The position numbers are program-made. From Candidatus Hydrogenedentota bacterium (GTDB taxonomy: Bacteria; Hydrogenedentota; Hydrogenedentia; Hydrogenedentales; GCA-2746185), in assembly GCA_046583315.1 (NCBI GenBank), contig JAYGCN010000290.1:1-11652 (forward strand): 11,652 nt of DNA, read 5' to 3'. Below, piece after piece: positions 3,001 through 6,000 of the stretch. Each line of letters begins with the position of its first letter. Position 1 is the stretch's first letter.

Positions 3001-6000
3001 CACAATAGGCGAAAAATGGTGTTAAGTCTTGAGTGGCTTTCGTTACTATCGAAAGCACCGTTCGGTGAAACCTACAGTACGATGAAAACGAGCCTACTTT
3101 CAGGAGAACCAACTATGCGTTATTGGCTGCGACCCCTTCACTTGGGAACCGCCCTCATCACCGGCATCGCGATGTCCTCGTCCGCATTTGCTGCCGGCGG
3201 TCAGGTCACTTTCACCAAAGACGTGCTCCCGATTTTCCAGGAGAACTGTCAGGAATGCCACCGCGCATCCGGGCTGAATCTCTCTGGCATGGTCGCACCC
3301 ATGTCTCTCACCAGCTACCAGGAAGCACGCCCATGGGCGAAATCGATCGCAAAGGTCGTCAGTGAAAAATCCATGCCCCCCTGGTTCGCTTCCGAAGGAG
3401 ACCACGGGAAATTTGAACTGGAACGTGGACTCAGCGACGAAGAAATCGCGACCATCGTGAAATGGGCGCAGACCGGTGCCAAACGCGGCAATCCAAAAGA
3501 CGCTCCTGCACCAAAAGTTTTCGCATCGGCCGAAGGTTGGACACTGGGTGATCCCGACATCGTTGTAACGCTGGACGAACCTTTCTGGGTCGGTGACGAG
3601 ATTGAAGATCTACAACCCCGCTTTGACACCTATCTGACGACCGACCAACTCGACGAAGACAAATGGATCAAATGGGTGGAGTTCCGACCCGGCTCAACGA
3701 TCGTTCACCACGGTGGCGCGCGCGTGCAGCCAGTTGACGAAAACAAAGAATCAATTATCGATCCCGTCAGCGGCGGAAAAATTATCGGTACCGCTCTCGG
3801 CGATGGTCCAGACCAATGGCCCGAAGGCTACGGAAAACTTGTGCGCAAGGGTTCCAAAGTCACATTCGGCATCCACTACAACAAAGAACCCGGTCCCGGC
3901 ACAGGCGTATACGACCAGTCCTCCATCGCCATCAAATGGCACACCGAACCGGTCAAACACGTCGTACGCTCCGCTGGCATCAGTTCACGCGGCTGGGAAA
4001 TCCCGCCACAACACGACTATTGGGAAGTCGGCGCTGCCCGCACTTTCAACGAAGACTCGGTCATCCTCAACATGATGCCTCACATGCACTGGCGCGGCCG
4101 ATCGGCGCGTTACGTCTTAATCACCCCCGATGGCGAGCGCGAAACTCTGCTGGATGTCCCGAATTACGACTTCAGCTGGCAAATGACCTACTCATACAAG
4201 GAGCCCAAGTTCGTTCCCGCAGGTTCACGCCTTGAGGTAACAATGGCCTTCAATAACTCCTCGGACAACGAATGGGTACCCAATCCCGACCGTGCGGTGG
4301 GTTGGGGCAGCATGACCAAAGACGAAATGAACATTGGCTGGACCGAATACGCCAATGCAGAACCAATTGATGATATCGAAAACTACGACTTCGGTGACGT
4401 GGGAACCGGTGTCGAAGACATTGACGAATAAACAGCAGGAGAGCCTTAATATGTTGAAGAAGTGGATGACAGGAGTCGCAGCACTGGCAACCGTTTGCGC
4501 AGCAGGCACTACAGCAAACGCGGCGGAAAGAGAACGTATCACATTCAGTAAAGACGTGATGCCTATTATCCAGGAGAATTGCGTGCGCTGCCACCGTTCC
4601 GGCGGAGATAACATTTCCGGTATGGTTGCGCCCATGTCCCTGATGACCTACCAGGAAGTACGCCCCTGGGCCAAATCCATTGCCAAAGCCGTCGCCACCA
4701 AAAAGATGCCCCCCTGGTTCGCTACCGAAGCATCGCACGGTGTCTTCTCCAACGAACGCGGCCTGACCCCCGAAGAAATCGAAACCATCGTCTCATGGGT
4801 ACAAAGCGGCGTGGTACGAGGCAATCCCTCCGACATGCCCGAACCCGTCACCTTCGAATCTGACGGTGGCTGGCTCACCGGTGTACCCGATCTGATCGTC
4901 CGCATGCCGGAAGCCTACTTTGTCGAAGACGACGTTGAAGATCTCTACCAAAGTTTTACCACCGCCCCCATCTCACGTGACCTGATACCAAAGAATACCT
5001 GGCTCAAAGCGATTGAATGGCGTGGCGACTCCGAAGTCGTGCATCACATCGTAGGATCCGCAGCCGTCGAGGGTGAAATGAATGAAAACGGCCTTCCAAA
5101 GCGCTACAGCCTCGGCTCCATCGCTCCCGGCGAAGAAGGCACCTTGTTCCCCGAAGGCCACGGCATTATGCTGCCCGTCGATTCCAAAATCCACTTCAAT
5201 ATGCACTACCACAAAGAAGCTGGCCCCGGCACCGGAAGAATGGACCAGTCCATGGTCGGATTCCAATTCTGGGACGAAGAAAAAGATCCCGAAATCATCC
5301 ATCCCGTAAGCCGCAACGGCATCTCGCACCGCTGGTTCGAAATTCCACCCGGAGTACCCTCCTGGGAAGTCGGCGCGTCCAAAACGTTCACCGTAGACAC
5401 GAACATCATGTCGTTGCACCCGCACATGCACCTGCGCGGTAAAGACGCCAAGTACATCGCCTACTACCCAGACGGCACCCAGGAAACACTGGTCACCGTA
5501 CCCAACTTCGACTTCAACTGGCAGCTGGACTACTTCTACGCAGAACCCAAACAAGTACCTGCTGGTACGCGCGTGGAATTCACTGTGCATTACGACAATT
5601 CCGCCGACAACGAGTACAACCCCGACCACACCATTCCCATGAGCTGGGGCGGTCCGACCACCTCCGAAATGATGATCGGATACATTTCCTACACCAATAC
5701 CGAGCCGGTATCCACGAAAGATTCAACCGACTAGAAGGCTCAGCCTAAAACGAAAGAGGTAACGTAAGAATGAGTGACATCGTACGAAAAATTCTGACCG
5801 CATCAATATGTCTTGCAATGGCATTCACATGCGCACTGAGTACCCCTGCCTTCGCACAAGAAGGTGAAGACGACCCGAAGGAATCCGAAGCAACGTCCAC
5901 CGAGGGTGAAGATGAGGCAGGCGACGAGGACGCAGCCCTGGCTGCAGCACGCCGTCGCTACGGACCCAATAAATCCACGGCCACCATCGACGAGAAGGAA

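Follow-up and report, generated by a model that had tools for sequence, protein, structure and literature searches.

Expansion of a cytochrome c-fused, PHM/DBH-like copper protein family in a Candidatus Hydrogenedentota genome

About 38 diverged, exported proteins, each joining a predicted haem c domain to a two-copper core, look like a library of O2-using enzymes with a built-in electron supply in the genome of a Candidatus Hydrogenedentota bacterium (G000; 4.65 Mb, 96.7% complete, 5.4% contaminated). The core is that of peptidylglycine alpha-hydroxylating monooxygenase (PHM) and dopamine beta-hydroxylase (DBH), with which animals produce noradrenaline and amidated hormones. The proteins are probably periplasmic, O2-dependent copper hydroxylases that are reduced via their own haem c and that each act on a small-molecule substrate of their own, an activity that is predicted. 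The family is real, partly visible in Pfam and unstudied in the open-access literature searched. What the present analysis adds specifically is the expansion and its internal pattern, that is, the predicted divergence of the pocket, the aerobic restriction, the probable DUF2911 partner and the copper-less paralogues.

The cytochrome domain and the copper core

The window, by which we mean the whole stretch of 11,652 nucleotides analysed (contig C307), carries two members of the family in tandem, gene 1 and gene 2, which are 49% identical (Table 1). Both start with a signal-peptide-like segment, followed by CxxCH, by MPPW about 40 residues on and then by a beta-rich remainder. The ligands of gene 1 are C45, C48, H49 and M87 for the haem and H198, H199, H254, H323, H325 and M405 for copper; those of gene 2, counted by hand, are C44, C47, H48 and M86, and H198, H199, H252, H325, H327 and M407. 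The numbers given in the initial annotation (H235, H306, H308 and M388) fit neither protein. In a Pfam scan Cytochrom_C matched gene 1 at E 2e-3 and gene 2 at E 7e-5, the latter over the cut-off, and Cu2_monoox_C matched at E 7e-4 and E 7e-3, respectively; an NCBIfam scan of the two genes named no family. The nearest named homologues (81% and 76% identity) are labelled Candidatus Hydrogenedentota.

Table 1. Features of the window, in window coordinates
Feature	Position	Strand	Remarks
c-type cytochrome, truncated by contig start	4..348	+	candidate shuttle; relatives two-domain, 240-260 aa
ThDP enzyme, 2-hydroxyacyl-CoA lyase / benzaldehyde lyase kind	380..2347	+	twin-arginine export signal; loosely linked
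Conserved hypothetical protein	2423..2896	+	accompanies ThDP enzyme; no Pfam/NCBIfam match
Gene 1 (P0001, 438 aa)	3115..4431	+	signal peptide, cytochrome c, CuH domain, CuM domain, acidic tail
Gene 1, class I cytochrome c domain, residues 29-125	3199..3489	+	Pfam Cytochrom_C E 2e-3
Gene 1, CxxCH	3247-3261	+	
Gene 1, distal Met87	3373-3375	+	
Gene 1, CuH subdomain	3556..3948	+	from profile alignment to PHM chains, conservation
Gene 1, H198, H199	3706-3711	+	= PHM H107, H108
Gene 1, H254	3874-3876	+	= PHM H172
Gene 1, CuM subdomain	3949..4359	+	contains conserved W355-Q356-x-x-Y359
Gene 1, H323, H325	4081-4089	+	= PHM H242, H244
Gene 1, M405	4327-4329	+	= PHM M314
Gene 2 (P0002, 427 aa)	4451..5734	+	tandem paralogue of gene 1
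DUF2911-subfamily protein, exported	5770..6432	+	probable partner; adjoins family genes; fusions P0036, P0062, P0127, P0134
13-pair intergenic hairpin 3' of DUF2911 gene	6462..6490	+	possible end of gene 1 - gene 2 - DUF2911 unit
PQQ-dependent dehydrogenase-like protein, exported	6535..8553	+	candidate electron source; Pfam PQQ E 8e-181

A family profile built from 115 homologues matched PHM at E 5e-9 and human DBH at E 6e-8. The alignment pairs HH with H107/H108, HY with H172/Y173, HxH with H242/H244 and EM with E313/M314, although the CuM Met (M405, equivalent to M314) falls in a second, weakly scoring stretch. PHM numbers were derived from the chain offset, and the identity of the ligands, which are those given in PMC6123673, was checked against that paper and PDB titles. 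Residue by residue, then, the profile places all six members of the proposed CuH/CuM ligand pattern in register. The statement that no sequence in the PDB is hit holds for a single protein (best E 0.036), not for the profile.

An AlphaFold model of gene 1 (pLDDT 90.7, pTM 0.88) returned only DBH or PHM in the 27 rows shown for ranks 1-31 of a Foldseek search of the PDB (best E 5e-13). With an exhaustive structure aligner the model matched PHM 1sdw at Z 19.8 (rmsd 3.8, 254 aligned) and DBH at Z 16.5, the next unrelated row standing at Z 8.5. Model, Foldseek and structure aligner thus all find the two-subdomain double jelly-roll core of type II copper monooxygenases, as the initial annotation had proposed. 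The cytochrome domain of the model has four helices, and its residues 29-124 are matched by the cytochrome PccH (Z 7.0). With CxxCH, a distal Met about 40 residues later, a helical fold and an export signal, it has the features of a class I cytochrome c, so that the proposed architecture, a cytochrome c followed by the PHM/DBH domain pair, was found in both window genes. Covalent attachment of the haem is predicted from the motif, and two cytochrome c assembly genes are present in G000. The full set of ten ligands recurs in 133 of the 150 best representatives at 50% identity, in keeping with the predicted binding of haem and metal. Structurally, the family belongs to the PHM/DBH superfamily, and it is neither a PHM proper nor a DBH.

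Automatic annotation sees part of this. PF01082/PF03712 scored above the gathering threshold in neither window gene and in 8 of 30 other paralogues, so that 8 of 32 full-length members, rather than the six first reported, pass a Cu2_monooxygen/Cu2_monoox_C cut-off. One of the 32 passes that of Cytochrom_C as well; hence the haem fusion, thought to be missing from databases, is partly visible there, and Atlas clusters list PF03712 with PF00034 on a minority of members.

Mean-field DCA of 493 sequences (effective number 373; about 73,000 pairs) put two couplings that link the CuM domain to the loop following Met87, S93-D347 and F91-M357, in its top 20. F91-M357 ranked 17 by this method, 16 by MI-APC, and 55 and 15 in disjoint subsets; S93-D347 fell to rank 747 in MI, and F91-M357 is the only robust inter-domain coupling. 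W90-P322, in which P322 adjoins the ligand H323, ranked 147 by mean-field DCA, and W90, W355, Q356 and Y359 are kept in 141-145 of 150 representatives. From these couplings and conserved residues we infer that the CuM domain may be the docking site of the haem and that aromatic residues may provide a path from haem to CuM. MI couplings of the 52-59 insertion with positions in the CuH domain were set aside as probable clade markers.

Size, age and divergence of the family

A sequence search of G000 gave 43 matches at E<=1e-3 and 36 at E<=1e-30, and an HMM built from 31 full-length members picked out 42 ORFs of the 4144 genes called, at E<1e-10. All ten ligands (four haem, six copper) are kept in 32 of the 42, close to the 30 members with motifs counted earlier. 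Eight ORFs are pieces, and two full-length copies (C76:2385-5165 and C93:1834-3672) have kept the haem motif and lost the copper ligands. There are two doubles, a fragment on C231 that is 89.6% identical in nucleotides to C76 and a piece on C339 that is 84.7% identical to C8; in addition, C231 and C329 hold pieces of a single gene that overlap over 141 nt at 100%, and one stop divides the copy on C299. After dropping doubles and joining pieces the family comprises 38-39 loci, or 0.9% of genes, which agrees with the estimate of about 40 paralogues and 1% in the initial annotation. It is not the largest family, as had been stated: in single-linkage clustering of all genes it forms the fourth-largest cluster, with 35 members, behind clusters of 42, 40 and 36. 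Using a heuristic, we found a hydrophobic stretch directly before the cytochrome domain in 32 of 34 long members, in keeping with the secretion proposed for them; the other two carry extra N-terminal domains.

Contamination or strain doubling was ruled out as the cause of the expansion. Apart from the two doubles, best-paralogue identities are about 62% or less, and at E<=1e-30 five relatives gave 29, 21, 19, 21 and 7 matches, against 36 in G000. The 29 belong to G047, a member of a different genus that is 97% complete and only 1% contaminated. The GC content of the 32 family contigs (0.48-0.55) brackets the genome mean of 0.53. A tree and reciprocal best hits were computed for 37 G000 and 30 G047 sequences; 18 of the 37 G000 paralogues have a reciprocal orthologue in G047 that is closer than any paralogue of their own genome. 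The duplications are therefore old and the copies have been retained, which rules out recent tandem amplification and bears out the claim of a real expansion.

Columns fixed within 17 orthologue pairs and variable between paralogues were ranked as candidates for specificity. Of the strongest 40, 37 lie in the copper domains, an excess that is partly inflated because the cytochrome is more conserved (identity between paralogues 0.51, against 0.30 for CuH and 0.39 for CuM). Such a difference is as expected for proteins with one redox partner and many substrates. The ranking is led by column 321 (R240 in PHM), followed by 406, 230, 276, 167 (Y79) and 226, with 409 (Y318) and 407 (N316) further down; columns 167, 407 and 409 correspond to what we take to be residues of the PHM substrate pocket. 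Among 60 close homologues of gene 1, no variation was seen at positions 201, 226, 321, 407 and 409. Judged from the alignment, positions that vary between paralogues and are fixed between orthologues map onto the PHM substrate pocket, which supports the suggested diversification of substrates. Position 321 is occupied by M, F, L, T, G, H and others, Arg not being among the common residues, and the position equivalent to N316 is hydrophobic. In PHM, R240 binds the peptide carboxylate, according to PMC9064607. The lack of Arg among the common residues at 321 argues that the family does not amidate peptides.

Neighbours, oxygen and wider distribution

Most paralogues are lone genes amid unrelated neighbours (106 neighbours scanned), and so genomic context names no substrate. 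One of the associations that recur is with a DUF2911 subfamily: all four copies in G000 are no more than two genes away from a family member (background 2.8%), 12 of the 135 phylum genomes contain the subfamily, all with at least 10 family matches, and 31 of its 37 matches stand beside a family gene, the remaining six being outside the comparison. Natural fusions of DUF2911 with the enzyme occur in five proteins, including two orthologues of gene 1. The DUF2911 protein is thus a probable partner of the enzyme. PQQ-type dehydrogenases adjoin family genes in 4 of 21 cases (background again 2.8%); the other 17 PQQ-like genes are not adjacent. The gene pqqC is present in G000 but was seen in only 5 of 14 family genomes; none was seen in the other 9, and pqqC was not found in G047 despite its completeness.

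At eight loci with an orthologue of gene 1 of at least 65% identity, a second paralogue is next in all eight, DUF2911 is called next in five and a PQQ dehydrogenase follows in six. The block of cytochrome, exported ThDP enzyme and hypothetical protein lies upstream in four. A second copy of the ThDP enzyme, on C354, stands without a family gene next to it, and with four of eight loci and this second cassette a fixed pathway with the exported ThDP enzyme was judged a weak candidate. A terminator scan of the window gave 13 terminator-like sites against 13.3 expected by chance, which weakens the hairpin behind the DUF2911 gene as a terminator; promoter and terminator scans of the window alike stayed at chance level.

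An island seen in G000, G038, G044 and G047, at loci chosen after their close coordinates had been noticed, contains a copper-less paralogue of 900-1270 residues, an exported protein of 125 residues, one or two intact paralogues, DUF2911 and CuA-type cox2-cox1. The copper-less paralogues, of which G000 has two, carry Cys/His-rich extra domains in which HMBD is matched only at E 0.02-0.15. As a guess, such copies might load copper or relay electrons.

Across the phylum the family is present in 53 of 135 genomes and a CtaD-like oxidase subunit I in 60. Family members occur in 49 of the 60 CtaD-positive genomes and in 4 of the 75 CtaD-negative ones, in support of the proposed link with O2; the genomes are kin, however, so that the two-by-two table overstates the association and is better read as a pattern than as a test. 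Of the four CtaD-negative carriers, one is a genome of 83% completeness and the other three contain fragments matching PF00115, some of which may belong to NO reductase; counting such pieces, 52 of the 53 carriers have a haem-copper oxidase. An O2-using enzyme would explain this co-occurrence, and so, just as well, would a protein that donates electrons to the oxidase.

G000 is by no means the only carrier: at E<=1e-30 the family takes in 1,506 clusters (50% identity), and at E<=1e-3 it matches 13,700 representatives, many of which are probably hit on the strength of their cytochrome domain only. The Atlas clusters come most often from Acidobacteriota, Planctomycetota, Gemmatimonadota, Pseudomonadota and Verrucomicrobiota; database names include 'redoxin domain-containing protein' and 'mono/diheme cytochrome c family protein'. 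Of 47 long homologues checked, 44 bear an AhpC/Redoxin domain at the N-terminus, in which one CP motif is found; in G000 one paralogue carries this domain and most copies do not. At least two units per chain are found in 29 of the 30 best long matches, echoing the tandem arrangement of genes 1 and 2. A plasmid database search returned one record. In the open-access literature, to which our search was directed, we found no study of a bacterial haem-fused PHM/DBH family; one paper presents PHM and DBH as eukaryotic and calls PHM widespread in eukaryotes (PMC8812541), and excerpts of another treat only DBH-like genes of sponges (PMC12665527). The open-access literature therefore neither refutes nor proves the claim of a first haem-wired PHM/DBH enzyme.

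Mechanism, alternatives and comparison with known systems

We propose that each paralogue would be exported by Sec to the periplasm and would act there as a type II copper monooxygenase that carries its own reductant, the architecture suggesting haem in place of ascorbate. A covalent His/Met haem c, docked on the CuM subdomain, would take electrons singly from a periplasmic donor. At the window locus this donor may be the PQQ dehydrogenases, acting via small c-type cytochromes; elsewhere it may be the quinol/cytochrome c pool or, in the form commonest outside the lineage, the thiol redoxin domain. As sources of electrons, PQQ dehydrogenases and thiol redoxin fusions are as good candidates as the respiratory chain. 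Electrons would then cross the conserved W90/W355/Y359 patch to the copper pair, CuM would activate O2, and a C-H bond of the substrate would be hydroxylated much as in PHM and DBH. After early gene duplication, copies with differing, non-peptide pockets and a common cytochrome face would have been kept, giving a periplasmic counterpart of the P450 expansion, directed against varied organic molecules.

The wiring could also run in reverse, as it does in quinohaemoprotein dehydrogenases: the copper site would dehydrogenate a substrate and the haem would hand the electrons on to cytochrome c oxidase. The high potential that is usual for His/Met haems c would suit such a route, as would the co-occurrence with CtaD and the CuA-type cox1-cox2 pairs that lie a few kb or less from family genes in G000, G044, G045 and G047 (cox1 in G038). 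These cox-near loci were, however, picked because their coordinates looked close; few of the 38-39 loci are near cox genes, and the five genomes represent one family. The full CuH and CuM set, including the equivalents of M314 and E313, is moreover kept in the arrangement with which PHM activates O2, and we regard reverse wiring as unlikely. A role in modifying proteins or cofactors, in which residues of a partner would be hydroxylated (a quinone cofactor for PQQ-like propellers, for example, or DUF2911 proteins), would account for the PQQ-like neighbours, for the fixed DUF2911 partner, for the window propeller, which matches 'acido-empty-quinoprotein' below the cut-off, and for G047, where pqqC was not found. 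Yet G000 has pqqC, about 30 paralogues have neither neighbour, and a single cofactor needs no dozens of distinct pockets, which makes this role improbable.

Non-catalytic handling of copper or electrons (storage, sensing or delivery), or nitrite/NO chemistry of the kind carried out by haem c-tethered copper nitrite reductases, is suggested by the two paralogues without copper ligands and their extra domains, and by PDB titles recording that PHM binds nitrite in crystals. It is very unlikely given the enzyme-like pattern of pocket residues that vary between orthologue groups and are fixed within them, and given the absence of the family from 71 of 75 CtaD-negative genomes. Still less credit is due to true peptide amidation by a PHM working with a PAL-like lyase. 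The fold and ligands are those of PHM, and one Vgb-lyase-like propeller lies between two paralogues on C344, but the residues at the R240 and N316 positions speak against a peptide substrate, and the six NHL matches fall on C308, C209, C281 and C345, none of them a family contig.

Returning to hydroxylases reduced through their own haem, a fuller version can be offered only tentatively and is, on balance, open to doubt: a self-wired class with a chain of three centres in which the haem c lies on the O2-binding CuM domain, dehydrogenases that oxidise the hydroxylated products and feed electrons back, DUF2911 and copper-less paralogues as further components, and some 38 P450-like specificities. 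If so, a redox-neutral loop would operate outside the cytoplasm, and an uncultured aerobic lineage would attack diverse organic matter with it. In the open structures of PHM and DBH the coppers are 11 A apart, and electron transfer between them is described as debated (PMC9064607, PMC6123673). In a bacterial version that lacks disulfides and carries a haem reporter docked on the CuM side, this question could be tested directly, and production of such a protein in a standard cytochrome c expression host is conceivable. The thousands of sequence clusters with varied pockets would represent an unexplored set of catalysts for O2-dependent C-H oxidation, and the expansion suggests that an uncultured phylum oxidises organic matter by a route so far unrecognised.

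Compared with known systems, the family shares with PHM (1SDW, 1OPM) the double jelly-roll core, the CuH His3 and CuM His2Met sites, E313 and Y173, and secretion. It differs in its low identity (about 16%), in the fused haem c, in not keeping R240 and N316, in having no conserved Cys outside CxxCH and no PAL domain or adjacent NHL gene, and in being bacterial with tens of paralogues. DBH (4ZEL) and TBH/MOXD1 have the same core behind an N-terminal accessory domain (Foldseek E 5e-13, profile E 6e-8), and the N-terminal DOMON of DBH is described as having a cytochrome-like fold without axial ligands for haem (PMC4846438). The family instead has, at its N-terminus, a class I cytochrome c of helical fold that contains CxxCH and a conserved Met, and it lacks the C-terminal dimerisation domain of DBH. 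Cytochrome c-tethered copper nitrite reductases (e.g. 2ZOO) are a precedent for wiring a haem c to copper in one chain; the cytochrome part of a nitrite reductase is weakly matched (E 0.14), whereas the copper part of these enzymes has a cupredoxin fold with type 1 and type 2 copper sites and not the PHM fold. Further counterparts are the 'redoxin' and 'mono/diheme cytochrome c' entries of Planctomycetota, Acidobacteriota and other groups, which have the same cytochrome and copper core, usually behind AhpC/Redoxin; these entries are named by their accessory domains alone, and most G000 copies have the core without the redoxin.

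Exported ThDP enzymes

The two copies of the ThDP enzyme in the source genome, G000, are predicted to be exported because they carry a twin-arginine signal. The flanks are constant in every case, with a c-type cytochrome gene on the 5' side and a 157-aa hypothetical on the 3' side.

Positions of features in the window, in loci (L) and on contigs of G000 (C)
Feature	Position	Contig
ThDP enzyme, 2-hydroxyacyl-CoA lyase/benzaldehyde lyase group, twin-arginine signal	window 380-2347	
ThDP enzyme, second copy, twin-arginine signal	84823-86826	C354
Copper-ligand-less paralogue	L020:2385-5084	C76
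Same	L021:1834-3585	C93
Same	L001:7382-10795	
Same	L003:16655-19393	
Same	L005:852-4661	
Vgb-lyase-like propeller with carboxypeptidase regulatory-like domain	L041:4251-5870	C344
Paralogue with single in-frame stop	L038:5824-7233	C299
A-family cytochrome c oxidase, cox1 and CuA cox2	L006:1296-3817	C329
Same	L001:1569-4147	
Same	L004:2064-4624	
Same	L005:7909-10685	

Copper-less paralogues and the oxidase pair

All five copper-ligand-less paralogues contain Cys/His-rich repeats and still possess the haem motif, and their conservation spans genera. Their neighbour is an exported protein of 125-130 aa, assigned to no family. The cox1-cox2 pair is convergent to the family island, and no cox3 was called adjoining it at the four loci; CtaD-like matches in G000 number five.

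Unusual paralogues and PQQ dehydrogenases

At L042 (C347), multihaem cytochromes and a cupredoxin-domain protein lie between two divergent paralogues, both with long C-terminal extensions. The stop in the L038 paralogue falls between the cytochrome and copper parts, and the split gene is either a pseudogene or an assembly error. The Vgb-lyase-like propeller is flanked by a paralogue and a PQQ dehydrogenase. Genome-wide, G000 has 21 PQQ-dehydrogenase-like genes, together with pqqC, which was not found in nine of the 14 family genomes (one of the nine 97% complete).

The homologues P0272-P0300 join two complete cytochrome and copper units in one natural chain, some with redoxin domains and others without.
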